A program made the translations under genes and the position numbers. The notes beneath the pieces were generated by a model, which searched no databases, was not told the DNA's origin, and worked only from the letters and a program-made list of their open reading frames with translations. DNA of 64,000 bases from Eremomyces bilateralis CBS 781.70 (lineage: Eukaryota): NCBI GenBank assembly GCA_010015585.1, contig ML975174.1; one strand, given 5' to 3'. Each line of letters begins with the position of its first letter. Position 1 is the first letter of the stretch. Below, piece by piece: positions 7,265 through 64,000 of this stretch.

Positions 7265-7327
7265 TTAAGCCTTTTAAGCCCTTTAAGCCCGTTAATCCTG
7301 TTAAGCCTGTTAAGCCTGTTAAGCCTT
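7265..7327. repeat. 9-bp minisatellite, 7 units, consensus TTAAGCCTG
   Basis: Units start at 7265, 7274, 7283, 7292, 7301, 7310 and 7319: ttaagcctt, ttaagccct, ttaagcccg, ttaatcctg, ttaagcctg, ttaagcctg, ttaagcctt. Confidence 0.9.
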
Positions 7328-7870
7328 TAAGGTGTGGGATGATTGATGTTCAGGGTGGACGATTGGACCGAATAGACTATTAGAGGAGAGTCCGCAGTTG
7401 GAGTTTGATATCAGATGTGAAACTGACTGCGACACTCCATTGAAGGACCGACAATGCCAAGACTCATCCCGGCTTCTCTCGCCTACAGTAACAACTCTAA
7501 GAAGCTTCCTCCTCCTCTACATCCCTCTCGAATTCACCACTCCTCTCTTTCGTCCATAGCTCTTCATGCTCTCGATCCGCTCTTGGACTGGTCTTTAATA
7601 TTTCCCACTTCTCCTTGATGGTCTTCTGCTTCATCAATTTCCATCGTCCTGTTCCATCGATTGTTTTCCAGCCCGCTCCTTCCCATCTTTGCTGACGTAC
7701 ACACCAACACTGCCCCGCTGGAGTCTCCAGGCTCCCCAGAGTGTCTCCAAACAAACCTCTCCAGATACGCTCTCCACCTTAAGCGTCGTTTCTACCGAAA
7801 TTGGACCTGTTCAATCATCCGTATTACGTTACTTCCTTCTTGGAGCGTTCCTGTTTGATCCGCCGTCGTA

Positions 7871-11651: not shown

Positions 11652-11914
11652 GGTTGGAGAGTGTACGAGGTTGGAACCTGTGTGGTTGAGCCGAGAGGAG
11701 CAGGCCGTGTTCATACAGCGGATACCTTTCGCTATTGATTACTTTTGCATTCACGTCGAAATTGAGCTCATCTCATATAACCGCCCGTCCTACGCGTCCT
11801 TGCATAACCTAATCATACAGCGTTTCGATCCCATGCGCCGTTTCAACCCAGCCTGAAACTCCATTCGGGGTATACATCATCCTCGCTAAGCGAATACAAC
11901 CGAAATCCCCCTCC

Positions 11915-33400: not shown

Positions 33401-33754
33401 ATATTGAGTTTTAATCAGTTAAGAAGAAGAACGAAGATGCATAATGCTTGGTAGAGCATTCGTATATGAATATGGATATAATTAATATAGACAGACCTCA
33501 AAACAACAGAACATTGGTCACTTTCAATATGGATAGTTGAAGACATCTCAAATGCCAACTGTAGAGATTTCCACTACCACAATCCCAATCTGCCTTTAAT
33601 ACCAATAGTAATGAAGCCTATTTGGCAGTATTGTACAATAGGAATCTCACCTTTTCAAAATGTAGGGGTGAACAATGGTTGAGACTCCATCTTGATATTG
33701 AATTGTGTGTGTAATAAACAACTGCAACTGCAGCTGCAAATAGCTGTAGCACTG

Positions 33755-33914
33755 TTATCTCAGCTTGGGCTCAGACGTTACCCAAGCCATGACCCTGGTT
33801 AAGCTAAACCGTAACCAGATTAAACCCATGTTTAGCGTAAATACTACTCACGTGATTGTAACTGTCTCGTGTAACGTCTGAGAAACTTCAGAGAATTTTC
33901 TGTGGAGTCGTACA
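33755..33914. repeat. Element 1 left terminal structure (outer TIR plus inner inverted block)
   Basis: Outer TTATCTCAG...; CTCAGACGTTAC (33770-33781) is perfectly inverted at 33871-33882 (GTAACGTCTGAG). Confidence 0.85.
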
Positions 33915-34126
33915 TGGTGATAATTGCTAGAAATAATGAGATTGTGAATAACATCATATGGAGAAGTTGAGTGGGCTCCAAAAGTTGATGCGATATAGAT
34001 AAAGGTTTGTTAAACCATCCTATGGCTTTTAAATCTCAAATTTCTAACTGTTAATTCTGTAACTAGCTTTTTAAAACTACTTGTTGCGTCATCTGTCGTA
34101 CAGGTTCACTCTCCAGGTCATCTTCC

Positions 34127-36934
34127 ATGCGACTGAAGCGCCGGCGAGGCCGCGCCCATCGATGTGAAACCGCCCCAAACAAGAATCCTGACTCTGCACA
34201 ATTACCTCCTATCGAGAAAACGATTGAAGAACGGATATTCATGATTGCAACGACACCAGAGAAAGAGTTATGTTCGGTACTGCAAGAGTTGGTTAAGGCC
34301 TGTCTGATACGAAAGAACATCATATACCAGCATGATCTTATCTTCCACGGTTTGCAGCGACTCCTGGGTGGTCGGCTCCCACGTATCAACCAGGTTCGGG
34401 CTCTTCGACGAGTTGTTTTTCGGCATGGGGATACTATTATCTCTGCGAAGACTGGTTTTGGGAAGAGCATCATCTTCCATGCTATCCCAATCTTTATTGG
34501 CAGAATTGTCATCCAGTTGATTCCTTTAAGCAAGCTTGGAGAGGAGCAGAAGAGGTCGATTGAACAGTTACCAGGGGCCAGGCCTTCCCTTGTTACAGCG
34601 GAGACTAAGCGAAGGAATCCGAACCTGTTAAAGGAGATTGCAGCTGGGATATATACCCATATCTTGATGGGTCCTGAGCAAGCAGTTAGCGATGAGTTTC
34701 GTGGTTTGCTGTTAAGCCCCGACGTAAAGAATAGGATTGGTGTGGTTGCAATTGACGAGCTCCATGTTATGGAGCAATGGAAGGAATTCCGGTTGGAATA
34801 TCTCAAAATCAGGGAATTACGACGGTACTTACGTGCTGATACCATCTGGTTTGGTTGTTCTGCCACTTTGAACAAGGCCACAGAACAAGCTGTTATCTAT
34901 TATGGTGGTTTCTACGAAGAGACACACCATGAACTGCCACTCAAGATCATCCGAGTCTCAATCGATCGACCTGATATCTCACTTAACATTTTGCCCATTA
35001 AGAGAGGAAAGAGCAAGGCTTACCAACGGCTATGGTTTCTAGTTGATCATGCATTAGAGCATCCAACTAGTAGGACGGAAGACGACCTCCAGCGAATCCC
35101 GAAAACGATTATCTTTGTAGATGGACTTCAATCGGTAGCGAATATCTCTGCATCCTTAGAGCGGCATCTCTTTGTTCAAGGGTTTGAACCAACCATGGTT
35201 CGGGATGCAATTGGTGTATATACATCGAATACTCCACGATACGATCAGGACTTGCTGTACGATAAGATCAGATCCCCATGCTCTTCTCTTAGAGTAGTTG
35301 TTGCAACTACTGCTCTTGGAATGGGTATGGATATTCCTGATATTATGGTGGTTGCTCAATGGGGACTTCCAATCGGCCATGATCTCGGTGATATTTGGCA
35401 GCGGGTTGGACGGGCTGTTCGAGTAAAGCAGGCAATCAATGGGATGGCTTTTATATTCCTGCCATACTATGCGTTCGACTCAATGGGACAGGATCCTGTT
35501 CAAATGCCTAGTTCGCGTAATAATCAGCCATTGTCTCAGAAGAAAAGGGGAAAGCGGAACACAGTCCGGTTACCGAATACCACCCATTCACCATCGCCAT
35601 TATCGCAAGGCGATGGAGCTGAGTCTGACTTCTCTGAACAGTCTGATAATACCGAAGCAGCCAGTCAAGAGAGCTCGAAATTAACTGTCCCAAAGTCTAA
35701 GAAGAGGGACAAGTCAGATGGTCCACCTCTATGGACTGTTGATGAACTTCAGCATAGGGCAACCCTCCCAATAACGATCCGTTCTCTTGCAAACGCGCCA
35801 TGTAGACGGCAGGTATTCCTTACGGAGTTCAATGAGGACCAATGCGAGCCAGATACTACCCCCATTCGAGCAGACAAGAAGGTCTGTTGTAATGGGAAGG
35901 AGTGTAATCTGGCATTGTTCCAGTTGCCACCAATGCCTGATACTTCCCTTAAGTCTACCAAACCTGGCCGAGAGACTAAGGCAGGTATTGCGCTGCATCT
36001 ATTGGTTATATGGTGTCTTGAACAGGTGGAATCGATCTTCCCACGAGCGCAGCAAATGATTCCAATCCCAGCTGGGGTGATCATTCCTCAAGAAGCGCAA
36101 TGGGCTATTGCTCGTATGTATACTTGTGTGAAGAACTCAACAACGATACCTATACCAGATCGGGAGGCATTGTTACCCCTCTTTGATATCGAAAACTGGG
36201 AATATCGGAACGTCCTCCTTGACGATTTGTTGGTATTCCTTGTCCAGATAGTTCCAGCCGTATACTCGAAGCATGCCGCGATACTAGAGGAACGAAAGTG
36301 CAAGAGGAACCTGAAGGCACTGGCCGGAAAGGTTACAGAGGCTGCTGCTCAAGATTTGGGGAGTAATCCTCAAGACTTGAGTATTATACCTAATCCCACT
36401 CTATCTAAAGAGGAAGAGGTTGCTCAATATGTCCACAGTCGTCAGTCGGCAGATGATAGGGATGGGCTCCGGGTTATCATGCATAACGAGCTACTTGCGC
36501 AGAAGCTTAATGAGTATCGGGAAACATTCAAACCCCGCCATTGGCCCTCGTTTTCATCACTGCCGGAGATATCGGAAGGGTCGCAGGAATTAGGAAGCTC
36601 GTTTGTCGTCGGAGGGGAGTCATCGTTCGTATCGCAATCTAGCGTTAAGTTAGATTCTGGTATAGATAATAAGACTACAATCCCCTCGGATATAAAAGCT
36701 CCTATACCTGTTAACATCCGGTCGCGCAGCCAAACGCCCAAACGAGCTACTCAAGATTCTTCTTCGGGTATGCGCAAGAGAAGTCGGACGCCGCTTAGGG
36801 AAGTATCTGGAAACCATGAGAAAGGACAGATCACTAGACAAGATAGGCCGAATACGCCTAAACGAGCTGGTCTTCGTACTCATGTACAGTTGACGCCAAA
36901 AGGGAGGGATCTATGGGGGAAGAGTGGTAAATAG
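34127..36934 (+). CDS. Transposon-encoded RecQ-like SF2 DExH helicase (935 aa)
   Basis: Motif I AKTGFGKS, Ia LIPL, Ib GPEQ, II AIDELH, III GCSAT, DRPDI, IV KTIIFV, V VATTALGMGMD, VI WQRVGRAVR; RecQ Zn-site-like CRR...CCNGKEC; uninterrupted ORF inside the TIRs. Confidence 0.9.
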   Translation: MRLKRRRGRAHRCETAPNKNPDSAQLPPIEKTIEERIFMIATTPEKELCSVLQELVKACLIRKNIIYQHDLIFHGLQRLLGGRLPRINQVRALRRVVFRHGDTIISAKTGFGKSIIFHAIPIFIGRIVIQLIPLSKLGEEQKRSIEQLPGARPSLVTAETKRRNPNLLKEIAAGIYTHILMGPEQAVSDEFRGLLLSPDVKNRIGVVAIDELHVMEQWKEFRLEYLKIRELRRYLRADTIWFGCSATLNKATEQAVIYYGGFYEETHHELPLKIIRVSIDRPDISLNILPIKRGKSKAYQRLWFLVDHALEHPTSRTEDDLQRIPKTIIFVDGLQSVANISASLERHLFVQGFEPTMVRDAIGVYTSNTPRYDQDLLYDKIRSPCSSLRVVVATTALGMGMDIPDIMVVAQWGLPIGHDLGDIWQRVGRAVRVKQAINGMAFIFLPYYAFDSMGQDPVQMPSSRNNQPLSQKKRGKRNTVRLPNTTHSPSPLSQGDGAESDFSEQSDNTEAASQESSKLTVPKSKKRDKSDGPPLWTVDELQHRATLPITIRSLANAPCRRQVFLTEFNEDQCEPDTTPIRADKKVCCNGKECNLALFQLPPMPDTSLKSTKPGRETKAGIALHLLVIWCLEQVESIFPRAQQMIPIPAGVIIPQEAQWAIARMYTCVKNSTTIPIPDREALLPLFDIENWEYRNVLLDDLLVFLVQIVPAVYSKHAAILEERKCKRNLKALAGKVTEAAAQDLGSNPQDLSIIPNPTLSKEEEVAQYVHSRQSADDRDGLRVIMHNELLAQKLNEYRETFKPRHWPSFSSLPEISEGSQELGSSFVVGGESSFVSQSSVKLDSGIDNKTTIPSDIKAPIPVNIRSRSQTPKRATQDSSSGMRKRSRTPLREVSGNHEKGQITRQDRPNTPKRAGLRTHVQLTPKGRDLWGKSGK

Positions 36935-37381
36935 AAGAACAAAGATTTGGAGGTGTTTTGGTTGGGAGAACTTCGGATAGCCCTTTTCAGACTAGTGTCC
37001 TTTTATTTCCAGATTTGTACCAACTTCAAAGGAAATGAAGTGGGTAGGAACCAATTGAATTATGATTGTATATACATCATCTTGTAGCTCTTAATAAGAG
37101 GATTCCAGCAATGTTATCATCTTTGAAAAACATTAAGGATTGGTAGAGATATTATAGTAAGACACACCTAAACCTGCTAGATACTAGGCTTTTATCTACA
37201 CATTGACCCCATTCCATACTCAATATCCCCCAGGTTGTGCAGCACGAGGCACCCTAGTCTCAACTATGAATTGGTTAATGAGCGACGGGCTCAGTAAACC
37301 AGTTCGAAACTAGGCCTTGGAGACGAATAGTTTCGATATAGAGGGCTTCGAGGGATATAGGTGAAGTGAGCGATAACGTAG

Positions 37382-40051
37382 TCAAAGAATATCATAATCC
37401 TCAACAAGCCCATCTTCACAAGCCTCAGTGTAGGTAATTGCTGGTGAAGTCTCAGAGTTATGAGGATTTAAATCCATCTCTTCGTCAAGGTAAGGATCAG
37501 CCTGGGGGATGATACTAGAGCGGACTGGTATCCGATTGTTGAAGGAATTGACCTTTTGTTCCAAGACCTCAGCACCAATCCGGAAGATATCAGGTGCGTC
37601 CCAACCAACAGCATCGCGAGGTTGGATAGTGAGCAAAGGACTGCGTAGATATAGTTGAAGGGCGCGACTGAAGATATCCCGTTGATCGGCTTTGGTTGTG
37701 TGTCGATCGCTTTGGGTAAACCCAAATGAGTTTTCCCATGCCCCACGAATCTTGGAGAAGACATTACTTAATAATGCGACTCTACCAAAGGTTTTGTCTG
37801 CATTATGTGTTGAATTCTTCAATAACTTCATATCAATCTTGTATGCGCAATTAACGTGTTCAAGGGCTAGGTCAATACCCTTGAACTGGCCTGGTTTGCC
37901 ATGTAAATTCACAAGACTGGATGAGAGTATTGCGTCGCGGAGAATCTTCTCTGAAACGCATTCAGATAATATCCAACGAAGATGGAGCATTTCATCACCA
38001 TACTTGTGCTGTCCAGTTGCGTGGAAGATAACTGCAAGTGGGTCGATTAAACGGTCAATCCAGCCGATGTCGCCATTCTTGACTGCTTTACGCAAAGAAA
38101 GGAAGATGCTGATCAACTGGACAAGTCGGCAGAGACTTCGAAATTCAAGTCCATATTGTGTCGTGTCCCATGCCTCTAGAGAGAATGCCAGTGTGCAGAC
38201 CTCTTTCATTGTAGAGATAAGTTCTTCTGGCTCCAGGTTCTGGATAATTAGATCCAGTTTCGAACTTGGACTGGAATCTTCAAGGAATGCCTTTTGGATA
38301 TGTCCTCGTCTCGTAAGAACATGATACCATAGCATCAAGACACGAGCATAAAATGATTGCTTGAGCAGGGGGTCAAACATGTAGAACTTTGGGGATTCTC
38401 GAGTATATCCTTTTCGATCCCAGTAGATGATATCCGATAGAAGCGTTGCATCTGATGGTAGTGAAGGCTCTTTATCCGACGGTAGTGAAGGCTCCGTATC
38501 AAAATGGATACGGACGATCGTTAGGATGAGATTCATAAGGACATGGAACAGTCCAGATGGACCTAACATCCATCTCCGTCGGTCAAAAGGTAGAATAGCA
38601 TTCTTCTGGGCCTCCTTTAGAGTACGGATATGTTGGGCTGTTTTCTGGTCTCCAAATACCAACCAGAGACGGTTTGTGAAGTCTTCGCTTGGTGGCTGGG
38701 ATTGGAAACCCAACTGTCGGATCCAAATATCTTCATGAACTCCGTAGGTTCCTTGGATTGTTCCTTCATCAAAAGGGGCAGCCCGAAGATGATGGATGTT
38801 TGTTACATTCCCACCCGCATGTAAACGGTTGATCTCTGGATAAGCAGGGACAGCAGACGGCTGTGATTGGAAAACCAAGTCAATACTTGTAGAATGAACG
38901 TGTTGTAGGGCCTCGTAGACTAAGTGAATGTCTATACTCTGCTTTTTCTCATCATACTTTAAGCCATCGGCTTTACAGATGTCTTTAAAAGAGAGAAGTT
39001 GGGAAGGATCGAAACTTGATTGGAATAAACCTTCATCAGGCAAATATGGGTTCTCAACCAACAGGCATGTTGTCAGATTCCGCATAATATGGGTTGAACC
39101 AATTGTCTGCTCGCGCACAGTATCTTTGAAGTTGAAGTTATCATAAACAAGGACTGTCTTTGGCTTTTTGGCCAGCATTGGGAGGCGGTTCTAATTAAAA
39201 GTTAGAAGAAAAGATCTAACTTATGAAATAAACCAACCTACCTTCGCCTTGAGTGCCATACCTGAAACCTCCTCATTAATACTTTGGTATGTCTCAGTGA
39301 GCCCAAGACCAGCAGCTGTATCCACGACCCGCCGCTTTGTCCCACTAGAGATCATATATAACCCCAACTGCTTAGCGTATACATTTGATGTGTTCCGCTT
39401 ACGACTCCGGCATGCTACTGCAGTCATCGTGTACATTTGCCCAATTGTCCCTTTTGAAAGAGTCTCCCTTTGATCTGGTTCTTGACTGCGACAGTTTCGA
39501 AGAACTAGATCTAAACAGCGGTACCATTCCGGTGCCCCAGTCTTGATAACTTTTCGGACATCTTCAAGGTCGATATCCCATTCGTGGGCGGTATCAGGAT
39601 CGAAGGTATCAAAGTATTTGTATTCGGCCAAGCCATCAAGTTCTTTGAGGAGAGGTTGCCAATTATGGCGGCTTGAAGGGTGATGCCCAACAACCTCACG
39701 GATTTCCTCCTCTTCTAAGAGTTCACGGAATATTCCAACCCTTGTAGACCTCCCTAAGGTACCATGGTGCTTATCCGATAGTAACCAGGCGCGGAGGAAT
39801 TCTTTAAACGTGAACCGCTGCTCTCGCCACAGATACAATGTTTCGCGCAATTTATCAAATGGTTGAAGTTTTTTTTTTCCTGCAACACGCCGAATCTGCC
39901 GATATCTAGTAGGGGATCGTCTTAGGGAAGGGCGTTTTGGTCGGGGAGTCGAACCTGAGGGTGAAGACGAGGTAGAGGGCGAGGATGATAAATATGTCTC
40001 ATCTGGCGGTATCGAAGATAACTCGCTGGAGATGAAGGGTGGGGTCGACAT
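37382..40051 (-). CDS. Putative DDE transposase (DUF6589/Academ-like); complement(join(37382..39190,39242..40051)), ~872 aa
   Basis: A 51-nt GT-AG intron at 39241-39191 (GTAGGT donor, CTAAC branch, TAG acceptor) joins the 276-aa and 598-aa ORFs in frame. Conserved motifs VYDNF, FGDQKT, GLFHVLMN, KNGDIG, GQHKYGDEML, LVNLHG and IDLALEHVN. Confidence 0.82.
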
Positions 40052-40228
40052 GGTGAAAGGGAAGATGATACGTTCTTGGACTGTGGAGTGGTTGGATTGG
40101 TCCTGAAACTTGATGAAATGTAGAAGTCAAGGGGTAGAATCAATTTGTGAAAACAGATTAGCGATAAACATTATGTATCAAGCACACTTAGCGATAGGAG
40201 TTCTCTCACCTATTTCATGATATGAAGC

Positions 40229-40412
40229 TGTACACCTCCACACAAATTATGCAGACGTCTCTCAGACGGCAGTTGTACCAACTGCCTTGATGGAATATGA
40301 TTGGTCAATATTTAGTGGCACATGCTAAAGAAGAGGCTGGGCTTTAATGGGTATAGCGGATCCCCATAATGGCCAGGGGGTACCATTGCCGCCTGAGTCC
40401 CAACTGAGATAA
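40229..40412. repeat. Element 1 right terminal structure
   Basis: CTCAGACGGCAG (40261-40272) is inverted at 40386-40397 (TTGCCGCCTGAG, 10/12). 8-bp stem GGCAGTTG-tac-CAACTGCC at 40268-40286. Terminal CTGAGATAA. Confidence 0.8.
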
Positions 40413-40668
40413 TAGCACTGCAGTAGCATACAATATGGTATTAAGGCATCAAGGCGACGAGCTGCATCATCGGCGAACAAGCTCCAAAGTTAAGGGACAT
40501 CCACAGGGAGCTCACAACCAAAGAGGAGGATTAATTCTTCACGCCCACTGTTTCTTGTTCATGCATTGATGCAAACAGTTACCGATAAAGACTTGCTAGA
40601 ACAATTCATAGCCGTGAGCCCATCATTATTGCACCGGAACTTGTAATATAGCCTCCACATCGCCCAGC

Positions 40669-52638: not shown

Positions 52639-54061
52639 ATGATGAACATGAAAAAGCTCGATCGATTGAAGCAGTGGGCGGGCGAGCGCATGGGCGGGGA
52701 GGCGAAAACTAACACGACGGAAGATTTCAAGGCGTTGGAGGTGGAGATGACGATGAGACATGATGGTACGCCCGTCCTACGAGCTGGTGGAATCGTGGAC
52801 ATGGAAGCTGACTTGATGGGATCACATAGGCATGGAAAGTCTCCACAAGTCGATGACCACATACATGAAGTCGTTGTCGAAGCGACAGGAAGGGGACGAC
52901 CGGGAGAAGGCATTGTCGGTCGGCAATCTTGGGAGTACCATGGTCAATCATGGACAGGACTTCCAGACCGATTCGGAGTTTGGGAACTGCCTCATAAGTA
53001 TGATCATCGATGTCCTGGGATACAAACGAAGGCTAATGAGGGATATAGCTCTCGGTCGAGCGAACGAGATCATCGCGCGGAAGCAGGAGGGGTACGTCAC
53101 TGCGGCGACATCAAGCTGGCTTGAGTCGCTTGAACGCTCGCTCGCACAGATGAAAGAATATCAGGTACGCATCCATCCACGGAGCATGAAGGACCAACGC
53201 TGACACTCCCAGGCCGCCCGAAAGAAGCTCGAACAGCGCCGACTCGCGTACGACGCGTCCCTCGCTAAGGTGCAGAAAGCCAAGCGCGAGGACTTTCGCG
53301 TGGAAGAGGAGTTGCGGTCGCAGAAGGCGAAGTACGAGGAGTCGAGCGACGATGTGCTGCGGCGGATGCAGGAGATTCAGGAGTCAGAGGTGGAGAGCGC
53401 GGCGGACCTGACGGGGATGTTGGACGCACAGCTGGCGTACTACGATAATTGCCGGGAGGTGCTGTTGCAGGTGAAGCGGGAGTGGCCGACCTCGTACGTA
53501 CCCGGAGAGTGATGCAGTCGAAGTTCGAACCTTACTGACGACATGTTAGCCAACGACATGACTCCCACCATAGCCGCCACGGACCCCGCTCCCGATCCAG
53601 CACCGCCGACCGCTTCAGCATGGCCGAGCACCCCTCCACCAACCTCCGCCCCATCACCACCCGCTTCGCCCCCCGCACCCAATCCGCCTCCCCTAAACAC
53701 GAGATCCCCACTNNNNNNNNNNNNNNNNNNNNNNNNNNNNNNNNNNNNNNNNNNNNNNNNNNNNNNNNNNNNNNNNNNNNNNNNCACCCGCATCCCCACC
53801 GACCCGGCCGGCCTCCGCTGCGCCCTCCGCCCGGCGCCCCGCATGATGACCGCCAGCGGCAACATCTTCCACGACCCGAACGACGACTACGCCGCGTATC
53901 AGAGCCACTCGCCGACGAACACGCACGCGAGCACGACGTCGACGGCCAGCGAGGTGGACGTCGGGTTCGTGAAGAAGGCGCCGCCCCCGCCGCCGCCGAG
54001 TCGGGTGAAGAAGGCGGCGCCGCCGCCGGTGCCGGGGAAAAAGTTTGTGGGGTTGGGGTGA
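52639..54061 (+). CDS. BAR-domain protein (fungal endophilin-like) with Pro-rich tail; multi-exon, spans an assembly gap
   Basis: RLKQWAGERMG..T..EDFKALEVEM, SEFGNCL, WLESLERSLAQMKEYQ-AARKKLEQRRLAYD, EEELRSQKAKYEES; tail KKAPPPPPPSR..PPPVP. Confidence 0.85.
53713..53784. other. Assembly gap (72 N)
   Basis: Run of n characters inside the C-rich last exon of the BAR gene. Confidence 1.
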
Positions 54062-54508
54062 TGGGGGAATAGATAGGTAGGTTGGGTTGAGCGTGGTGTT
54101 GGGAGAAGGCCGTCTAATAATTCGGGAGAGTTTTGAGTCTGGAGTCTCCTCCCTTGGTGCAGATGGTCGTTGGTAAAAAGCGCTGGTCGTGTATACTATT
54201 ATTTTTACGAGGAGGGGTTCAGCGAGGCCGTAGGTCCGTTTCGTGCAGTCTAGTCGACAATGCAAAAGCGTGTTCCGCCAAATGAAGTCAGGATAGAGAA
54301 TCGGAACGTTGTGAACACGTCGATGTTTGTGAGGAAAGTGAAACTGGCAGACTAGGAGCTTGAATCTGAGTTGAGTATGACCTTATCACGTCTTACATGT
54401 CCCTCGTATTGCCATCCTTAGTGTCTAGTGATCTCTCAGCTCTAGCCTCTAGGCCACTAGTCGGCAGTACAATGGACTGTGGCGTCTGAATTGTGTGAGG
54501 CTGTGAAG

Positions 54509-54623
54509 TTACCTCAGCAAGCTCAGGCTATTTGTGGTCGTGCCAAGGCACCGGAGTGGGACTATACCTAATCGGTAAGTCACATGCACTCCTCGAACAA
54601 ATAGCCTGAGGATTCTGTCAATG
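54509..54623. repeat. Element 2 left bipartite TIR
   Basis: Outer 25-bp block and inner 25-bp block, 65 bp apart; CTCAGGCTATTT and AAATAGCCTGAG are inverted within the end. Confidence 0.93.
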
Positions 54624-54770
54624 GGTTTTGGGTGTGTGCGGAGAGCTTTCATACCAAATGGAAGACCATCTTTAACTCCATTTTCATCCACAACCACACT
54701 ATGCTCCGTCAATTAAATATAACCATTCGATTCCCCTGCTTTTTCTCCATAATTGATTGAATTTTGGGTC

Positions 54771-57498
54771 ATGTCGGCCCGAAACCAGCATCGTCAGAGC
54801 GCGCGGTTGAACTCGCCCACTTTGCTACCTGCTCCAAGTTCTCAGCATATTGCTGCGTCAAACACATCTAATGCACCTCGTCAGAAAGCAAGAGGTTCTC
54901 AAAGACGCAGTAAGGCGCAGAGAGTAAACGAGATATGCCAATTCATGCGGAAAAAAAACATTACACTACGAGAATTTATCCATGTCTACGCGACGACTCA
55001 AGGGTCTGATGGTTATGGGGAGCGCCCTGCCACGCGTGCCAAACGACTCGCCGAGGCCGTCTACGGTCAGGCAGAGGTCTTAGATGCACTGCGAGAACAT
55101 CCCGCGTCTGGTGCGGCAGGAATTGTCACTATAAAGGACCTGAGGAAGGAAATGAAGGAACTGGAAGAAGCCGGAGATATGTTTAGTGCCTACCAAGTCG
55201 ACCGTGTCCAAGAGAAGACTTCACCTGCCGGCGTAGGGAGGGAGAAACAGTCAGAGGGTCAGAAGGTCGAGGACTACGAGCGCATACTGGGCAACATGCA
55301 GTTTGGGCAGATGTACGAGCAAGTTAAAACTCGTGCTCCTCTTCTATGTGGATTGCTCAATGGCCTTATGGCGCCCAAGACAGAGAGAAAAGATCGACCG
55401 CCACGGGATCCTGTCAAGTTCAACCACAGGATTGCGATAATCACGTCGATTCTCTGCTATTCTCGGGCATCGGAAGGGAGTAACAAGTTTCCCCGCGTAT
55501 TTGGCGCCTTTCTGCACTCAAATGGCGTGAAACGACGTATCCTCGATCTTCTTCACCAATTTGGGGTTTGTGAAGGCTACAAGGGAGTCCACAGGCATCT
55601 CGAAACTGTGGCAGAACAAGCAAAGGCATCCTCACCGCCTCTCAGTATAGACGTCCACTGATTGCAATTAGGGAACGGTTCGTCGATATGGTCAGCAACT
55701 GGATGCCTGTGTTGTATATGACAATTTCGACTATCGAGAAGGTATTAAGCACCAGCTTATTTCAAATCACGCAGAAATGCGCTCTGTGACAACGGGAAAG
55801 GTTTTCAGAGGCTCTGATATCCCCTCTGGTGGTCTAAAGCAGTCAATGCTACACCGCGAGGTTCCACTTACAATAGAGGATCTTTTATATTCTCCTGGTG
55901 CAGCAGTATATGACGAGACTGCCGCAAAGATTGATACCTACTTTATAGCGGAGGCAATTCGATCAGCATATCCAATATCGGTCGAATCTATCTTCTCTAC
56001 GTCCGACACACCTTACCCCGCTATGCCAGCAGTCGAGTTACTCGAGATTCGAAAGACAGATAGCAAGACGCTCGGTCCGATTCTCTTTAACGAAGGTACT
56101 CTAGATGGTTCCTACGAGGTTATAGAGAGCATCTACAAGTACCAATTCCGGCTAGATAATAAAGAATTCGACAACCGTCTGTTCTTGGCATTTGGCGATC
56201 AAAAAACCTCTTCACTTATCCGATCTATGCAGGCTGAGCAAGTAGACGCGTCTATGGCGTATGATAGAAAAGACTGGCTGATAGGAGTCGCTGCTCTCTT
56301 TCACCTGCGTATGAATTTTCTATGGCTTATGCAAAAGACACATTACGGAAACATGGAGCAACAGGACGCTTCAACTCTCTATCACAACATCAACTTCTGG
56401 GGACGAAAGAATATTCCAGCAGACCGTGCAGCATTTCAGGTTCTGGAAGAGCTGGTACTTCACAGTTTCGACGCTCGGGTTGTTGGACTACTCTATACTC
56501 GCCTCGAGCAGTGCGGCATCGATACCTCGGATCAAGATGAGGTTGACAAGGCAATTCGGAACATGAATACTAGAGGCTTTATGGACCTAGTGGAGGATAT
56601 TCGCAGATCCGCATTTGAGCCGCAAGCCTGGCGACCATCTAAGGAGCAGTATACCAACGACACAGTCGATGAGGAGTTCCTCAGTCACGCTCGATATCTT
56701 CAACAAATGGTTGTATACAAGACCTTGAAGTACGGTATCAAAAACGGAGATATAGGACTCATTGATCGAGTTATTGGTGTCTGTTGCTTTTACTTCGAGG
56801 GGACTGGACAATCAAACTACGCATTCGAAATGCTCTATCTAAAGCGGCTCACTAGCACCAAAGCTTGTGACAAGGAGCTTCGGCGCGCAATACTCTCGAA
56901 TAGCCTCGTTAATCCGCACGGCCGTCGGGACACCTGGCAAGAAGTCGATCGTAGCCTTGAATATCTAAACCTAGAGCTGAAAAGAGAGCTTTGGGCCCGT
57001 CGAACGTCGACTTTCGGATTAGATGCCCTGTTCAAGACTACCTCATTGACGGCAGAATATACTGTTTGTCTACGCAGGGCAGTTGAGGATGCATTCGCCC
57101 GGAAGGACAACTCCACACATTCCGTGCCCTCCCCGAAAGATGATATTCATACATTGGCCTTTGAGCTAGCATACGACTCGATTAAGCTCTATGACGGCGG
57201 CAGGAAGGCAAGACATCAAGCGCCAGACATACATACGGTCGGGCTCGAAAGAGTAGCAACTCAAAAATTGGAAGTGTTCAATGCAAAAGTTATAAGAGAT
57301 AAAGATCGGATAGTTGTACCACCTTATGAGAGGAGAGGAGCTACGGCTGATCTAGATCCCAATAGCGACACGATGGCGATATTGGTATGTGCATGCTCAT
57401 ATAGTTTCTGGTCTTGTGCTAACAGACGTCGCCAGCCCTTGGCAGACAGAGATATAACCCATGAATGGGGTTTACCTTCGGATGTCGAGTTAGACTAA
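54771..57498 (+). CDS. Putative DDE transposase (DUF6589/Academ-like); exon 1 from 54771, intron ~55626-55671, probable second intron 57385-57435
   Basis: Exon 1 (GAFLHSNGVKRRILDLLHQFGVCEGY) is homologous to element 1 exon 1 (GLYMISSGTKRRVVDTAAGLGLTETY). After the TAG acceptor at 55671 the frame reads VVYDNFD, FGDQKT, ALFHLRMN, KNGDIG, GQSNYAFEML, LVNPHG, VDRSLEYLN. Confidence 0.82.
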
Positions 57499-57573
57499 CC
57501 TATCTATAATACCCACTCGCTGTAGTCGTAGCGGCTATTATTCCTTTTCTTACTGCGAGGACTTCGCCTTGCG

Positions 57574-60054
57574 TTAAATCGAGTCTAAAACGCCGAGTAC
57601 GACCCGTTTCGTCGCTACTCCCTTCCCTCGGCTCAATGCGGGACGTTTCGAGGCCTGATTACTATTAATTATTCCTGGCACCTCATTCTCACCATCTTCG
57701 AGAACACCTGATATAGTAGAAGAATAGTCTACGTCTGTAGATATCATCGACCTACCTATAGATGTGAATGACGAGTTCACTGATACTATAGGCATTGATA
57801 GAGTAGGTAGATAAGAAGAACTCGAAGCTGGTACCTCTCTTGCCTGGGCAATGATTCGCTCTAGCGAGGAAGCGTACTCTTCTCGTTCATGCGCGAATAA
57901 TACTCTTCGTTCCTGATCAGGAGTTATCGGAGTCTCTGCTTCGATAGACAATCTTCTCTTCCGACTTCGTTGTTGAGATACTTGCCGTTCGGCGGTGGGA
58001 TGAGCTTGTCTTTCGAATGGTGCTCTTCGTATTAGAACTTGAGCTGCAGCTGTGGTTCCTGGCGTGCAGCCTCCGGGCCAGTTCCTCACGACATAGGACT
58101 TGATTTTATTAAACTCTTCGAACAGCTCATGGGAATGATCTTTCATCCAAGCCGATTTCATAAACTTCTCCAACTCAGCAGCCGAGCGGATGTTCGTATA
58201 CTCTCTGGATATTGATATCCACTCTTCCTTCTGCGCGAGTAACCGTACTGAGAGCTCTGGCTTTACCATCCGATGTGCCGAATTAACAACGTTGTCTCCC
58301 CAGAGGGTCAGGCGGTCATAAAATGCGCGGGATGCCGTTCCAGCCTGGGGCTTGCGAAGACTAGCAGTGGTATCCCATGGGAAAGGCACCGCCCGCGTCA
58401 GATCAGGGTTACAGACGTTACAGCACTCGTGCGGTTGAGGAGCCGGTAACCTAGATGCAGGGTCCGATAGACTCTCTTGTAGCCAATCCATTAGGATTCG
58501 GCGTAGGCATGCGGATCGATTAACAAGATTGAATAGCGCCGGACAGTCATTATATAGGTCTGTTCGGCGTTCTCTCCCCGTTTTGCGTCGGTGCTGCCCT
58601 CCTGGTATATCATACTTAATAGCGTCTACGGCAACATCCGATTCATCATCTGGGATATCACCGCCCACCCCTGGATCGGTGGAGTACGACTGAGCTAACT
58701 GGCTCGTGTCGGAAGGCTGCCTTAAACACGACAGCATCTGAGTTCTGGATTGCAGCGCCGGTCTTGTCGATGAGATCCTGTCACCTATCGCCCAACTTTC
58801 TACCAAGAATATAGCCTCTCCTTTAATGCCAGTCATCCTAGCTGCACGGCCAAAGCGTTGGATAAGGACGCATAAGAGTCGTTCTAGAGGGAAGCCATAC
58901 TGGACAACTCGTATGACATCCGAGAGATCTACCCCCGTTCCCAATGATTCTGTGGCCACCATGATTCGGATCTTAGAGTCCGGTTTAGAAAACTGGTCGT
59001 ATATAGCATTCTTGTCGTTCGGAGTAGTATGTGAATGGTAGACCTGGATAATCTGCTTGCAGTCGTGGGCGTCCACGGACCCAGCTAACAGTTTCTGTAG
59101 CCAATCTCGCAGACATTCCGCACATTTTTGGATATCCCGTCGGGAGTCTATAAAGATTACAGTCTTCGGAATTCGCTCCGGCGTTGGCGAGCCGTTTGTG
59201 ATGGCGTCCTGCAGAACAAAGAAGAGGCTTATGAATCTCTTCGTTGTCCGTGGTTGGATCATCTCGACGATTAACTTAATCTCTGGTCTATCGACGGATG
59301 ATCGGAAGAACTCGCAGCTGGCCTGGAATCCTGTCATTTTTGTCGCAGTGTCTAACGTCGTCCGGTCCAGGGTGGCAGAGCAGCCAAACCAAGGGACACC
59401 TCCCCCTAGCCTTCGGCGTAGAAGAGAGAGTTGTGCATACTGTGGACGGATACCACTTCCCCAGAGGGCCACTAAATGGAGCTCATCTATAGCCACGATA
59501 CAGACACGCTTCTTAAAAGTCGGGCTGCTTGCTATCGATCGAAACCAACCGGCGGCGATCTCTGGGCCCATGATAAGATGAGTATACACTCCCATTTCAA
59601 TCTCTTGGGCTAATTCTTGAGTCTTGTCCGTCCTGCCATTGATAAACACGGATCTCGCGCCCGGAAGCCTTTGGATTTTGATACACTGCTCCTGTCCAAT
59701 TCGATCCAAAGGGATGATAATGAGGCCGATGCCATCGCGGCAAAACAACGGCGCTGCCTGGAATATGACACTTTTGCCAAAAGATGTCTTGGCTGCAAGA
59801 ATAAGGTCCTCCTTCTTGAATACTAAATGCCATATAGCATCTACCTGCTTCTGACGAGGCTCGAATGGGTAGAGATGGCAGTCCAGGCCTGCCCTGATGA
59901 TGCCCTTCTGCACTTCCTCGGGCGCGTCTCTTGCAATTTCGACTAACCGCTGTATAGCCAGCATACTAGTGGTGCTATAGGCATCGTGGACGAGATCTCT
60001 GGCGATGTCCATGGTCTCTCGTCGCCGTTTTCGAACGCTCGCCTTGCTTCGCAT
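57574..60054 (-). CDS. Transposon-encoded RecQ-like SF2 DExH helicase (~826 aa from first ATG)
   Basis: AKTSFGKS, IIPL, GPE, AIDELH, GCSAT, DRPEI, KTVIFI, VATESLGTGVD, IQRFGRAAR, CLRR...ECCNVC. The motifs are collinear with the element 1 helicase. Confidence 0.9.
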   Translation of the reverse strand: MRSKASVRKRRRETMDIARDLVHDAYSTTSMLAIQRLVEIARDAPEEVQKGIIRAGLDCHLYPFEPRQKQVDAIWHLVFKKEDLILAAKTSFGKSVIFQAAPLFCRDGIGLIIIPLDRIGQEQCIKIQRLPGARSVFINGRTDKTQELAQEIEMGVYTHLIMGPEIAAGWFRSIASSPTFKKRVCIVAIDELHLVALWGSGIRPQYAQLSLLRRRLGGGVPWFGCSATLDRTTLDTATKMTGFQASCEFFRSSVDRPEIKLIVEMIQPRTTKRFISLFFVLQDAITNGSPTPERIPKTVIFIDSRRDIQKCAECLRDWLQKLLAGSVDAHDCKQIIQVYHSHTTPNDKNAIYDQFSKPDSKIRIMVATESLGTGVDLSDVIRVVQYGFPLERLLCVLIQRFGRAARMTGIKGEAIFLVESWAIGDRISSTRPALQSRTQMLSCLRQPSDTSQLAQSYSTDPGVGGDIPDDESDVAVDAIKYDIPGGQHRRKTGRERRTDLYNDCPALFNLVNRSACLRRILMDWLQESLSDPASRLPAPQPHECCNVCNPDLTRAVPFPWDTTASLRKPQAGTASRAFYDRLTLWGDNVVNSAHRMVKPELSVRLLAQKEEWISISREYTNIRSAAELEKFMKSAWMKDHSHELFEEFNKIKSYVVRNWPGGCTPGTTAAAQVLIRRAPFERQAHPTAERQVSQQRSRKRRLSIEAETPITPDQERRVLFAHEREEYASSLERIIAQAREVPASSSSYLPTLSMPIVSVNSSFTSIGRSMISTDVDYSSTISGVLEDGENEVPGIINSNQASKRPALSRGKGVATKRVVLGVLDSI

Positions 60055-60416
60055 GGGAAATATGGACACAAAATGTGTTCAATAATAGATATTTGTGTGA
60101 ATACCGACCGAGAAAGGCGTTATATGACATCCAATGGGTGTTTTCCAGGCTCATTCGACCGTAAGCTCCGGAACGATGGCTGGATGGTGATTTCGGTGTG
60201 GTCTAGTTCATCACATATTAGCGTTTTTCACCCGACACAAGCATGGACATGTAAAAAAAAATCAATTACGAGATAGAGCATACTTTAATACACAATCGAT
60301 CAGATTTTGGAGTACATACGACGTGTTTTGATGTGGTTATTAATGGATCGTGATTTTGTCAAATCCGCAGAGATACATACAAACCACATACAAAATTTAT
60401 GCAGAGCAGTGCGCGT

Positions 60417-60524
60417 CATTGACAGAATCCTCAGGCTATTTACCAGAGGAGTAGTTAAAGTAACGTGACCTTTTACAAAAAAGGTTAGACTCCCCTGAGA
60501 AATAGCCTGAGCTTGCTGAGGTAA
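60417..60524. repeat. Element 2 right bipartite TIR
   Basis: Inner block 60417-60441 and outer block 60500-60524, 58 bp apart. Confidence 0.93.
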
Positions 60525-61164
60525 CTGTGAAGCAGGATAGATGCACGTGACCACAGCACGTGAGTCAATGATAATATATGTCACGTGCTGTTACGGACAA
60601 ACATTTATCCGTCCCGTAGCGTTCAGACTGCGCAGCAGAGAACGCAACAACTTGAGTTGCTGCTTAGAGAGACTGAGAGACTGAGGACTGTGAGAGACTG
60701 ACACCACCAACCAACATCTGAACCATCCTTCCAGTCTGTTGTCCATCGTGCAACGCCCGCAGCCATCAATTCCATCCCCGTTTCTCCCTCCCTCACCCCC
60801 ATACACGTCCTTTTTCACGCGTTGATCTCCCCATTCCTTTCCTTAGAGCCCATCGCCCCGTCCCCCCAATTTCCCTCCCACCCTCGTTCCCGCTTCGACC
60901 ATCGCGACTTTCCCCCAACTTGCACGCAGTACCACCCCAACGCCGCATTCCATCTCCGCTCTCTCCCCCGATCATTCCCTATTGCGGAGTATGTCATTCT
61001 GAGCTGCTGGAATTCACTCTCCCTCACCGCGCCAAGACCTCGCGACCCATTTGCCACTGCGACCGCTCTTGCGCATTCTCACCCGTCCTCCGCATACGGT
61101 TGTGGAGTCGATAACGGGGACCACGTGCTTGGGGCATTCACCGCACTGGGCCTGAACGACCATC

Positions 61165-64000
61165 ATGGCGTCAGTTCAACCCGCGCCGGGATTTCCGGCC
61201 GCGTCTCATGGACCTGGGCCCAACACCAAGGAGAAAATCCAGGAGCTGTTCCTTGTATGATCCCCCATCAACGCGCGACGAAGCTTGCTAACGAGGGCAG
61301 AAATACCAACAGATGAAGAGCTCCGGCGTCGCGGAGACGGACCCCGATTTCATCAAGACGCGCAACATGGTCCAAAACATCCAGCGACAGGCCGCGGCGC
61401 AGAAGAAGCGCATGGGCATGGCGCATCAGCAGCAGCAGCAGCAACAGGCGCAGTCCCAACAGCAGAATGGATCGCTCACGAACGGTACCAGCAACGGAGT
61501 CGCGCCTGTTGCCACCTCGACCGCTTCCACCACGAACGACGCATCCGGCGCGTCGAAAACACCCGTTACTCCTCAGAGCGCCACGCAGGGTTCCCTTTTC
61601 CAAGGCGGCGATGACAAGCATCCTGTGCCCAATGCCTATACGCAGGTGTTCACGCCCAAGTCGCTATCGACCCTGCGGTCGCAAGTGGCCGCCTTCCGCC
61701 TGCTGAGTAAAAACCTTCCGGTGCCCGCACAACTACAGCAGACGCTGTTTCCATCCCAGCAAGCCAAGAAGCCGCAAAGTCCGGCGGAGAGCGTGTCAGC
61801 TGCGAAGAAGGTGCTGAGTGCATCGTCCGGGTCGGTAATCAAGGGTGCGGAATCGACCACCGGGTCGGTATCCAAGGATGTGGAATCGACCAACGGCGCA
61901 CGATACCTGGACTTCGAGTCGCCCTATAAACTTTCCGGAAGCGACCCGATCAGCTATTGGGATCACCAATACCGGGACAAACGACCTCTCGTCCCAAGCA
62001 TCATGGGCCCGGGCGTGGACGTGGACCGCCTGGTCGAAGAGCGCGAGAATATTGTCTACAACCGGATCCAGGCGCGGAAATCGGAGTTGGAGAAGCTGGG
62101 TGCGAATATTGGATCCTGGGATTCACACCGATCCGCCACGCCGAAAGACGATGGGAAGTCAAAGCTGAAGGCTCTCATCGAATTCAAGAAGCTCAATCTC
62201 CTGCCTCTGCAACGCAGGCTTCGACAGCAAATCAGCGCGGAGATGCTGCATGCCCACAACCTTGCGATGACGGCCAACCGTGGCATGTGTCGACGAATCA
62301 AGAAACAGTCGTCGCGCGAAGCGCGCATCACCGAGAAGCTCGAGAAGCAGCAACGCGATGCCCGGGAGACCAAGGAGAAGAAGAAGCACAACGACTTCCT
62401 GCGCGCTATCGTCGCGCACGCTGAGGAGGTCCGAGAGAATGCCGCCCGACATCGCGCCCGGACCGTGAAGCTTGGTCAGCTCATGCTGGCGACGCACCAA
62501 AACATCAAGAAGGAAGAGGAGAAGCGCATTGAGCGAACGGCCAAGCAACGTCTGCAGGCGCTCCGGGCCAACGACGAGGAGACGTACCTCAAGTTGCTGG
62601 GTCAAGCCAAGGACAGCCGTATCTCGCATTTGCTCCGACAGACCGACAGTTTCCTCAAACAGCTGGCGGCGTCGGTCAAGCGACAGCAGCGCGGTGCCAA
62701 GGAGGACTACGTGGTGTCCGAAGACGAGGAAGAGGAGAGCGAGCTCTCCGAAACGGAAGATCACGAAGCTCGTGGCCGGCAGATCGACTACTACGAGGTG
62801 GCTCATCGTGTCAAGGAGGATGTCAAGCAACAGTCGGGGAACCTCGTCGGTGGTACGCTCAAGGACTATCAACTTAAGGGTCTGCAGTGGATGATTTCCC
62901 TGTACAACAACAACCTGAACGGGATTTTGGCCGACGAGATGGGTCTGGGGAAGACCATTCAAACCATCAGTCTCATCACGTACCTCATCGAGAAGAAGAA
63001 TCAACCCGGGCCTTTCCTTGTGATCGTGCCGCTAAGGTGAGTCCCCTCTGCCTAACCTTGACGCAAGCTAACCGATTTAGTACCCTTACGAATTGGAATA
63101 ATGAGTTCGAGAAATGGGCACCAAGCGTGCAGCGCATCGTCTACAAGGGCCCCCCTCTCGCTCGAAAACAACAGCAACAGCAAATCCGCTACGGGCAGTT
63201 CCAAGTCCTCCTCACCACCTACGAGTTCATCATCAAGGATCGTCCCATCCTGGCCAAAATCAAGTGGATGCATATGATCGTCGACGAGGGTCATCGCATG
63301 AAGAACGCCAATTCCAAACTCAGCTCCACCATCACGAATTACTACAGCACCAAATACCGCATTATCCTGACCGGGACGCCGTTGCAGAACAACCTCACCG
63401 AACTGTGGGCCATGCTCAACTTCGTCCTCCCGAACATCTTCAAATCCGCTAAATCCTTCGATGACTGGTTCAACACCCCGTTCGCCAACACGGGCGGTCA
63501 GGATCGCATCGAGCTGACCGAGGAAGAGCAGCTGCTCGTCATCCGTCGTCTGCACAAGGTGCTGCGTCCCTTCCTGCTGCGTCGTCTGAAGAAAGACGTC
63601 GAGAAGGACCTGCCGAACAAACAGGAGCGCGTCATCAAGTGCAACTTCTCGGCGCTGCAGGCGAAGCTGTACAAGCAACTGGTCACCCACAACCGGCTCA
63701 TGGTCAGCGATGGGAAGGGCGGGAAAACCGGGGTGCGTGGCTTGAGCAACATGCTGATGCAGCTGCGAAAACTGTGCAATCACCCCTTCGTCTTCGAGGA
63801 GGTCGAGGATCAAGTCAACCCGACGCGTCAGTCAAATGACCTGCTATGGCGCACCGCCGGAAAGTTCGAATTGCTGGATCGGATCCTGCCCAAGTTCCAA
63901 AAAACCGGGCATCGCGTCCTCATGTTCTTCCAGATGACGCAGATCATGAACATCATGGAGGACTTCATGCGGCTTCGCGGATACCAGTATCTCCGCCTGG
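61165..64000 (+). CDS. Snf2-family chromatin-remodelling ATPase (Snf2/Sth1/Snf21-like); runs off the window
   Basis: QLQ-like ([18 protein letters not shown]) and HSA ([29 protein letters not shown]) regions; ATPase motifs [65 protein letters not shown]. Confidence 0.95.

Follow-up and report, generated by a model that had tools for sequence, protein, structure and literature searches.

In a 64,000-nt stretch of Eremomyces bilateralis CBS 781.70 (GCA_010015585.1, contig ML975174.1), which we call the window, we observed a transposable element, element 2, at positions 54509-60524 (6,016 bp), with a perfect 8-bp target-site duplication (TSD) on both sides. It holds two convergent intact genes, one for a three-exon DUF6589 protein and one for a RecQ-like SF2 helicase (Table 1), and lies upstream of a Snf2 gene, at a distance of about 770 bp. 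A BAR gene had been proposed as its left neighbour in an earlier note on this DNA, but the left-flank frames that we scanned gave ribosomal L2 alone, further upstream.

Table 1. Positions in the window of element 1 and of the features of element 2
Feature	Position	Strand	Description
Element 1	33755-40412	-	divergent second family within the superfamily of element 2, oppositely oriented
Left TSD copy	54501-54508	.	CTGTGAAG, 8 bp
Left terminal block	54509-54533	+	tip TTACCTCAG, 4-nt spacer, then CTCAGGCTATTT
Left inner block	54599-54623	+	second half of the terminal block, inverted; forms the left palindrome's 3' arm
Predicted transposase, exon 1	54771-55625	+	285 aa, all-helical; last three helices weakly helix-turn-helix-like
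Intron 1	55626-55671	+	46 nt, GC-AG, phase 0
Predicted transposase, exon 2	55672-57384	+	DDE/RNase H catalytic domain (Pfam DUF6589)
Intron 2	57385-57435	+	51 nt, GTATGT...CTAAC...CAG; in frame, open when read through
Predicted transposase, exon 3 and stop codon	57436-57498	+	
RecQ-like SF2 helicase gene	57574-60054	-	DEAD and Helicase_C (Pfam); uninterrupted open frame that converges with the transposase gene
Right inner block	60417-60441	-	forms the right subterminal palindrome's 3' arm
Right terminal block	60500-60524	-	perfect inverted match to 54509-54533
Right TSD copy	60525-60532	.	CTGTGAAG, 8 bp

Each end of element 2 carries two 25-nt blocks that are perfectly inverted at the other end, a terminal block, TTACCTCAGCAAGCTCAGGCTATTT, and an inner block, AAATAGCCTGAGGATTCTGTCAATG, the latter extending to 36 nt at 89%; the layout described earlier, with spacers of 65 nt on the left (54534-54598) and 58 nt on the right (60442-60499), was reproduced. 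The 25-nt terminus has two matches in the window, against 0 expected from 100 shuffles, and the four occurrences in the window of a 12-nt core, AAATAGCCTGAG, all lie in the four blocks (0.23 expected). With the flanking AG and CT counted in, the terminal inverted repeat reaches 27 nt, and because this AG...CT extends the repeat, the boundary is genuinely ambiguous between a 4-bp and an 8-bp TSD. Related metagenome loci resolve the question: in about 36 of 55, the motif TTAYCTYAG lies upstream of the transposase match, at a distance of some 1.0-1.3 kb, and AG directly precedes the tip in none of these approximately 36 left ends. Therefore the TSD is settled as 8 bp, and the tip proposed earlier, TTAYCTCAG, stands; the siblings themselves have TSDs of 8 or 9 bp. 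A contig of read run X3 stops 1 nt beyond position 60524.

The ends had also been described as discontinuous terminal inverted repeats (TIRs). The blocks are indeed conserved and the spacers are not, but the arrangement is better read as one subterminal palindrome per end than as a split TIR: at both ends the inner block repeats, in inverted form, the second half of the terminal block, so that each end is an imperfect palindrome of about 100 nt. Folded as single-stranded DNA, the left end (54509-54628) and the right end (60412-60524, minus strand) give z = -4.6 and z = -6.4, respectively. Each end keeps a stem of 12-20 bp that starts 12-13 nt from the tip; the sequence of the stem differs between the left and right ends and among families, and the architecture recurs across the group.

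The DUF6589 gene has open frames of 285, 571 and 20 aa. Its first intron occupies the same position as a GT-AG intron in element 1 and has a GC donor that is kept in five related loci (L001, L003, L004, L005 and L006), while the second is spliced out in database gene models of relatives. The Pfam scan identified DUF6589 with E = 1e-67. When the AF2 model of the protein (pLDDT 82.7) was compared with known structures, the VIA fold list consisted mainly of DDE transposases and retroviral integrases, with the P element transposase best (Z 9.9 over 286 residues), followed by integrases (Z of about 9), Tn5 (9.0), Hermes (8.1 over 277 residues), and RAG1 and Transib (about 5); values of about 8-10 are middling by the tool's scale, and the case for the fold rests on the consistency of the list rather than on any single score. 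Hermes leads the Foldseek matches (E = 0.012). The modelled DUF6589 protein is thus shown to adopt the fold of a DDE/RNase H transposase, and we infer that its catalytic triad is D17, D176 and E430 of the 608-aa reading frame; both acidic residues of D426-RSL-E430 are without variation in alignment A1. Searched against PDB sequences, the transposase had no matches at E <= 10. For the N-terminal 285 aa, the fold search reached a best Z of 4.7, with a weak helix-turn-helix likeness over residues 238-285, and a Pfam scan of 19 long representatives returned DUF6589 alone and no domain name for this part.

DUF6589 comprises 4,006 representative clusters at E <= 0.001. A search with alignment A1 for longer, fused forms found none among 3,764 candidates of 1,561-4,455 aa, which is weak evidence, and a search of the ESM Atlas with DUF6589 clusters excluded gave no usable match. 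In the one paper that a full-text literature search turned up, DUF6589 is considered as a factor that may act in virulence or epigenetics. Its interpretation as a transposase would assign a function to this Pfam family and help to avert mis-annotation in fungal and molluscan genomes.

The second gene has an open frame of about 826 aa. Its PDB sequence matches, to human RECQ1 (E = 2.5e-18) and also to WRN and RecQ, show the predicted product to be a RecQ-like SF2 helicase. Neither protein of element 2 has a match to XPG_N or XPG_I at E <= 0.01 in the Pfam scan.

Element 1, with termini TTATCTCAG and an 8-bp TSD, TAGCACTG, at 33747-33754 and 40413-40420, encodes two proteins, each with about 30% identity to its counterpart in element 2. 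Further relatives were collected in a locus scan with the narrower alignment A2, the wide alignment A1 being too diverse. A three-ORF layout, including a separate SF2 helicase gene, is common to element 2, element 1 and the loci L001, L020 and L030. An 8-bp TSD is perfect in L020 and matches at 7 of 8 positions in L057, an approximately 11-kb relative with no ORF of at least 200 aa. Among 19 testable end pairs in metagenome contigs, nine, from a related family of about 11 kb, have a 9-bp TSD (six perfect, three with one mismatch), and seven showed no TSD, which may reflect chimeric assembly across repeats.

Intact genes, a perfect TSD and perfect blocks, the lack of a RIP signature, a family that is multi-copy in the reads of the likely source, a deletion derivative of about 690 bp and the lack of an insert of this size at the site in a related genome point to recent activity. 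The RIP indices of element 2 are 0.79 for TpA/ApT and 1.16 for (CpA+TpG)/(ApC+GpT). In run X1, which together with run X2 probably represents the sample behind the assembly of the window, summed contig depth, a quantity not to be equated with copy number, is 560-12,700 over element 2 versus about 200-220 on its flanks. Among 865 aligned contigs, 473 are at least 99% alike, and the deletion derivative is seen in the same reads as a joint from 54825 to 60171 with 19 filler letters. In run X4, from a related genome, positions 54028 and 61228 are only 1,726 letters apart, and the site has no insert of the element's size; the bridging contig aside, most of the stretch is without cover in this run, and with flanks only about 87% identical, too divergent for the purpose, no precise empty site was recovered from it. 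These data bear out the earlier description of element 2 as a candidate active element, and it is probably still mobile.

A structurally intact copy could nevertheless be immobile, whether silenced or lacking a host factor or a functional protein, its young look then going back only to gene conversion or to a last transposition that happened recently. In L001 and in L005 the two ends differ at positions 10-13, so perfect TIR blocks are not required in siblings and their perfection here is weak proof of mobility, and somatic excision is something that contigs are unable to reveal. Against this stand the open frames of both genes with their conserved splice signals, the presence of the invariant catalytic residues, the missing RIP signature, and the many nearly identical contigs and the deletion derivative in the same reads. 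On balance we consider an immobile copy unlikely.

As to the kind of transposon, we compared the transposase by eye with three portions of the RNase_H_Academ HMM (PMC5751038, Supplementary File 1), positions 1-40, 143-194 and 450-465. The strongest positions in these portions are D3-N4-x-D6 (emission costs of 0.09, 0.10 and 0.29 nats for D3, N4 and D6), G17-K18, g190-D191-Q192 (0.88 and 0.91 nats for D191 and Q192, after v-v-l-t) and D450-x3-E454 (0.09 and 0.10 nats; position 453 is L). Each finds a counterpart in the protein of element 2: D-N-x-D followed by G-K in YDNFD (16-20) and TGK (41-43), (G/F)-D-Q in L-A-F-G-D-Q-K-T (172-179; FGDQKT at 174-179) and D-x-x-x-E in D426-R-S-L-E430. The spacing between the first two aspartates is 188 in the profile versus 159 in the protein, and profile positions 143-168 have no clear motif match there. 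The strings GDQKT and YDNF do not occur in the supplement, because it holds a profile and not sequences. An RNase H-like DDE fold, as found in the AF2 model, is also expected of an Academ transposase, and the distributions of Academ and DUF6589 coincide: both occur in Pucciniomycotina, in bivalves/Mollusca and in Mucoromycota, and are low-copy in most fungi.

Since the three catalytic motifs match the Academ profile, we assign element 2 to the AcademH type. AcademH elements (Kojima 2020, Mobile DNA 11:15), as excerpted in PMC10045372 and PMC10799480, encode a helicase and occur in Ascomycota. On these accounts they resemble element 2 in being TIR-bounded, in pairing a DDE transposase with a separate helicase, in their low copy number in fungi including Ascomycota, and in their long TSD; they also resemble it in having no XPG nuclease domain. 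They differ in the exact length of the TSD, which is given as 9-10 bp in the excerpted part of PMC10045372 versus 8 bp in elements 1 and 2 and in L020, although the 9 bp of sister families fall within the AcademH range. AcademH, KolobokH and Helitron are grouped as sources of transposon-derived helicases in PMC10799480; the supplements of that paper do not mention DUF6589, PF20231 or Academ. AcademX elements, in which the transposase is fused to an XPG nuclease, share the catalytic motifs, and the profile was built largely from such sequences (44 in total); unlike element 2 they have an XPG domain, no helicase gene and, in the same part of PMC10045372, TSDs of 3-4 bp. Element 2 is therefore not a new kind of element or system but an 8-bp TSD variant of a known superfamily, and probably an intact, autonomous and recently inserted cut-and-paste Academ transposon that encodes its own helicase in the manner of AcademH.

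It is considerably less likely that element 2 belongs to a separate, undescribed superfamily, with a DUF6589 transposase, a RecQ-like helicase, a TTACCTCAG tip, subterminal palindromes and TSDs of 8-9 bp as its hallmarks, and that its likeness to Academ goes no further than the overall DDE fold and a handful of convergent motifs. The match to Academ is at the level of motifs and was made by eye, the portions of the HMM compared show no obvious likeness beyond the three catalytic motifs and G-K, and both the TSDs, measured against the AcademH range given in the excerpt, and the treatment of DUF6589 in the literature would suit such a superfamily. However, all three motifs, including the unusual D-N-x-D and G-D-Q, fall on the strongest Academ positions of these portions with comparable spacing, the gene content is the one described for AcademH, the taxonomic distribution is that of Academ, and the sister families' TSD lies within the range just mentioned.

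That element 2 is a divergent hAT or P element is very improbable. P and Hermes transposases, whose RNase H fold contains a large alpha-helical insertion, are the best full-length fold matches, and both superfamilies have 8-bp TSDs. But the likeness to Hermes is one of shared fold only; hAT dimerisation, BED and THAP domains and the catalytic and GTP-binding Tnp_P_element domains have no Pfam match at E <= 0.01; even the permissive PDB sequence search gave no match; the TTACC tip differs from the tips of P and hAT elements, the latter being of the YARNG type; the catalytic motifs match the portions of the Academ profile compared; and we know of no hAT or P element with a separate helicase gene. 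Inverted repeats are also present inside P elements, about 100 bp from the tips. Zisupton/KDZ elements share the 8-bp TSD, and in the three reading frames scanned there was no KDZ or CxC Pfam match at E <= 0.01. KolobokH and Helitron/Helentron elements resemble element 2 in carrying their own helicase. The target duplication of Kolobok is TTAA; Helitrons, which have neither TIRs nor TSDs, encode an HUH nuclease fused to a Pif1-type helicase, whereas the helicase of element 2 is RecQ-like and separate from the DDE enzyme.

For transposition of this AcademH-like element, we propose that the transposase, acting through the putative D17/D176/E430 triad, would bind the tip and the CTCAGGC-type motif, synapse the two ends, excise the element and integrate it by way of a staggered cut of 8 bp. 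The helicase may serve as an accessory factor, which is pure inference on our part: its task could be to open the palindromic ends or to make them extrude, so that the transposase recognises them, or else to favour synthesis-dependent repair of the gap at the donor site. Such repair would bring back a copy there and occasionally leave internal-deletion derivatives. A more specific and rather speculative form of the first option, which we would not expect to hold, treats the subterminal palindromes as structural signals cooperating with the element's own helicase. Once the helicase had opened the ends, hairpins or cruciforms would extrude from the palindromes, to be recognised or cut by the DDE transposase. 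If true, this would be a DDE cut-and-paste pathway reliant on helicase-made DNA structure, and it would account for the combination of a DDE enzyme and a RecQ helicase being confined to this lineage.

To our knowledge, no Academ element has been shown experimentally to move, and we know of no established role for the AcademH helicase. As a candidate for an active member of Academ, element 2 is of practical use. It is complete and unmutated, is present in multiple copies and has a naturally occurring derivative of about 690 bp, and it offers a direct test system in which the transposase could be supplied with or without the helicase, and with or without the palindromes.

Academ is a rare and little-studied transposon group. 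The family described here looks to have been horizontally transferred between fungal classes.

The ends of element 2 (6,016 bp) are laid out as the earlier note had described them, with an 8-bp target site duplication (TSD), two perfectly inverted 25-nt blocks per end, and spacers of 65 and 58 nt between the terminal and inner blocks. The terminus has two matches in the window, as against none in 100 shuffles, and all four occurrences of the 12-nt core AAATAGCCTGAG are confined to the four blocks, with 0.23 expected in the window. The ambiguity between a 4- and an 8-bp TSD raised in that note is real: with AG as the left flank and CT as the right, one can extend the inverted repeat to 27 nt and read the duplication as 4 bp. 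Scanning metagenome contigs with a transposase alignment, we recovered 80 loci. TTAYCTYAG lies upstream of the transposase match in 38 of the 55 loci examined, and in about 36 of these 38 it is tip-like, sitting ~1.0-1.3 kb ahead of the match with a second CTYAG after it; 11 of the 17 loci that lack a match had less than 1,150 nt of upstream sequence. AG was never found directly before the tip in the sibling loci, where those two bases vary, and we therefore assign the AG and CT in the window to the target. The siblings thus do not carry AG...CT as part of the element, and the 8-bp TSD is upheld.

Coordinates of the two elements' features within the window
Feature	Coordinates	Strand or orientation	Description
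Element 2, TSD copies	54501-54508; 60525-60532		CTGTGAAG
Element 2, terminal block (25 nt)	54509-54533; 60500-60524		perfect inverse
Element 2, second (inner) block (25 nt)	54599-54623; 60417-60441		perfect inverse
Element 2, transposase gene	54771-55625; 55672-57384; 57436-57498	+	three exons
Element 2, helicase gene	57574-60054	-	continuous frame; DEAD and Helicase_C (Pfam)
Element 1	33755-40412	opposite to element 2	TTATCTCAG tips; 8-bp TSD TAGCACTG

Our TSD survey covered 21 end pairs, two of which had flanks that were too short. The TSD is a perfect 8 bp in element 2 and locus L020, 8 bp with 7/8 matching in L057, a perfect 9 bp in L042, L051, L063, L066, L071 and L080, and 9 bp with 8/9 matching in L065, L070 and L073; element 1 is a third perfect 8-bp case. 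No TSD was found in seven of the 21 pairs (L021, L028 twice, L029, L030, L061 and one L070 pairing), for which chimeric assembly through repeats may be the cause. The TSDs are mostly 9 bp in a ~10.5-12.5-kb family (L042, L051, L057, L063, L065, L066, L070, L071, L073, L080), which occurs on long contigs of two metagenome data sets and shows C-to-T variants in the tip (TTACCTTAG, GCTTAG). Copies of this family look RIP-like and degraded, given that L057 contains no ORF of at least 200 aa. In L070, and probably in L065, one copy is nested within the outermost 8-17 nt at an end of another copy, which suggests insertion into sibling termini.

The ends are also palindromic. The inner block of element 2 repeats the terminal block's second half in inverted form, and the first 113-120 nt of both ends, taken as single strands, fold into one long hairpin (z = -4.6 and -6.4; 0 of 200 shuffles fold as well), while the ends of element 1 fold less clearly (z = -3.1 and -1.9). 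In element 1, CTCAGACGTTAC at the left terminus has a mirrored counterpart, GTAACGTCTGAG, some 115 nt further in. Among 53 distinct ends of relatives, 31 repeat 9-18 nt exactly in inverted orientation, more than shuffled sequence gives (p <= 0.01); the mirrored stretch comprises terminal positions ~12-30, and its copy begins 57-100 nt inside the end. Past the shared CTCAGRC core, the left and right ends of one element have different stem sequences, yet each stem finds its mirror in the same end: averaged over 16 elements, the longest match is 10.9 nt to the own end and 7.1 nt to the other end (Wilcoxon p = 6e-6, an overstatement, as one family supplies 10 of the 16). These end-specific stems would fit paired binding sites or a structural constraint equally well.

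Element 2 carries two convergent genes. Intron 1 of the transposase gene (46 nt, phase 0) has a GC donor and lies at the identical position to a GT-AG intron of element 1; since the GC donor is kept in five sibling loci (L001, L003, L004, L005, L006), it is not a lesion. Intron 2 (51 nt) is canonical, in frame by chance, and spliced out in database models of relatives. In the public gene models of two related proteins, P0002 and P0008, the junction of exons 1 and 2 is wrong, and P0008 is without the GDQKT segment. The nearest solved structures to the helicase are RecQ1, WRN, RecQ, RecQ5 and BLM (best E = 2.5e-18). The large transposase exon matches Pfam DUF6589 (PF20231; E = 1e-67). The 608-aa frame gives a confident AF2 model (pLDDT 82.7, pTM 0.83) with the strand-helix order of an RNase H fold, broken by a large helical insertion. 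The top Foldseek matches of the model are Hermes transposase chains (E = 0.012), and a structure search independent of Foldseek returned mainly DDE enzymes: P element transposase (Z 9.9, 286 residues aligned), retroviral integrases (Z about 9), Tn5 (Z 9.0), Hermes (Z 8.1, 277 residues aligned), IstA, Mu, TnsB and mariner (Z 5.6-7.0), and RAG1 and Transib (Z about 5). These Z values are middling on the tool's scale; what counts is how uniform the list is. The last three helices of the transposase's helical N-terminal part are weakly similar to helix-turn-helix domains (Z <= 4.7).

In kind, we read element 2 as an AcademH-type element, a type already described, reportedly in 2020. Two papers (PMC10045372, PMC10799480) describe AcademH as a helicase-carrying fungal DDE transposon, low-copy in Basidiomycota, Ascomycota and Mucoromycota, with TSDs of 9-10 bp (3-4 bp in AcademX); the 8-bp TSD sets element 2 apart from these descriptions. 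An earlier study (PMC5751038) states that, as of 2017, no Pfam family corresponded to the RNase H domain of Academ. From its profile of 465 positions and 44 sequences (Supplementary File 1), we compared positions 1-40, 143-194 and 450-465 with the DUF6589 protein. Within these, the strongest positions correspond: D3-N4-x-D6 to Y-D-N-F-D (16-20), G17-K18 to T-G-K (41-43), g190-D191-Q192 to F-G-D-Q-K-T (174-179) and D450-x-x-L-E454 to D426-R-S-L-E430. D426 and E430 are invariant in a 28-sequence transposase alignment, and the catalytic motifs are similarly spaced (188 and 263 positions apart in the profile; 159 and 254 in the element 2 protein). Academ elements reach their highest abundance in Pucciniomycotina, stay at low copy number across most other fungi and have undergone expansion in bivalves. 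DUF6589 clusters (4,006 representatives at E <= 0.001, 2,213 at 1e-10 and 654 at 1e-30) are commonest in Mollusca, Basidiomycota and Mucoromycota, and the domain has been called enriched in stripe rust in the literature. From the catalytic motifs and the matching distributions, we read DUF6589 as the Academ transposase core, an identification at the level of motifs. The Pfam model leaves out the first catalytic Asp, beginning downstream of it, and this may be why the family's transposase nature went unseen. A full-text search for DUF6589 found one paper, which draws no connection to Academ. This link adds to the AcademH description in the two papers above, as do the recurrent subterminal palindromes and the tip TTACCTCAG-N3-4-CTCAGRC, which is conserved even though the identity of the transposases is only 35-88%; some of these points may already be in print.

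By the usual thresholds of the indices, element 2 carries no RIP signature (TpA/ApT 0.79, (CpA+TpG)/(ApC+GpT) 1.16); its G+C content is 48%, compared with 54-57% in the flanks. We compared contigs of four sequencing runs (X1-X4) with window positions 53800-61800. X1 and X2 are one sample, probably the source of the window. Flank contigs have depths of about 200-220 (X1) and 130-150 (X2); summed over contigs at least 85% alike, depth across element 2 is 560-12,700 (X1) and 730-3,800 (X2), though such sums do not give copy number. Of the 865 X1 contigs placed on that stretch, 473 are at least 99% alike. The unique-flank contigs end 28 nt inside each end of the element. One X1 contig of about single-copy depth joins 54825 to 60171, skipping 5,345 nt with 19 filler letters, and is a non-autonomous deletion derivative of about 690 bp. 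Deletion derivatives of this kind are left by gap repair after excision of P and Ac/Ds elements. X3, labelled as another organism, contains pieces 90-99% alike to element 2, one of which stops 1 nt past 60524. In X4, which bears the same species label and has flanks about 87% alike, 54028 and 61228 are bridged by 1,726 other letters, too few to hold element 2; the exact empty site is unreadable there. In two X1 contigs the right tip (60524) runs head-to-tail into the left tip (54509), with 7 and 8 letters between; their depths, 194 and 241, are about that of single-copy flank. Such contigs could come from circles, or from tandem copies with a shared spacer of TSD length. In another X1 contig (depth 221), left-flank sequence up to 54508 continues at 54602 on the opposite strand; this could be a copy that is partial or rearranged, or the palindrome could have affected assembly.

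Element 2 has defined ends flanked by staggered-cut duplications, encodes a protein of DDE fold whose triad is intact, and belongs to a many-copy family that includes a deletion derivative. We infer that it would move by cut-and-paste transposition with an 8-bp stagger, the helical N-terminal part of the transposase presumably binding DNA. The helicase may remodel the palindromic ends or favour synthesis-dependent repair of the donor gap, a role with precedent in Drosophila BLM after P excision.

The element 2 transposase is 81-90% identical to proteins assigned to Hypocreales (Stachybotrys, Fusarium, Metarhizium, Dactylonectria; Sordariomycetes) and to Eremomyces (Dothideomycetes). For the N-terminal region of the host Snf2 protein (window 61292-63040), no named fungus among the matches listed exceeds 60% identity, and no recognised Sordariomycetes genus appears among the 120 Snf2 matches listed (two lineages were checked in taxonomy). 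Taken jointly, these findings look like horizontal transfer of the element between fungal classes. Element 1 matches element 2 in gene content and convergent arrangement; identity is about 30% for each of the two proteins, there is no nucleotide similarity, and it looks like an intact second family of the superfamily. A third TTATCTCAG at 31352-31360, 2.4 kb left of element 1 and without partner or TSD, is probably a chance occurrence, since 0.72 copies of this 9-mer are expected per window. Element 2 lies in the 5' region of the Snf2/Sth1-type gene (QLQ-HSA-SNF2), about 770 bp upstream with 60533-61291 between them, and the presumed promoter end of its helicase gene points toward that gene. 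In the coding region of the left-flank gene, 71 N at 53714-53784 mark an assembly gap or a masked stretch.
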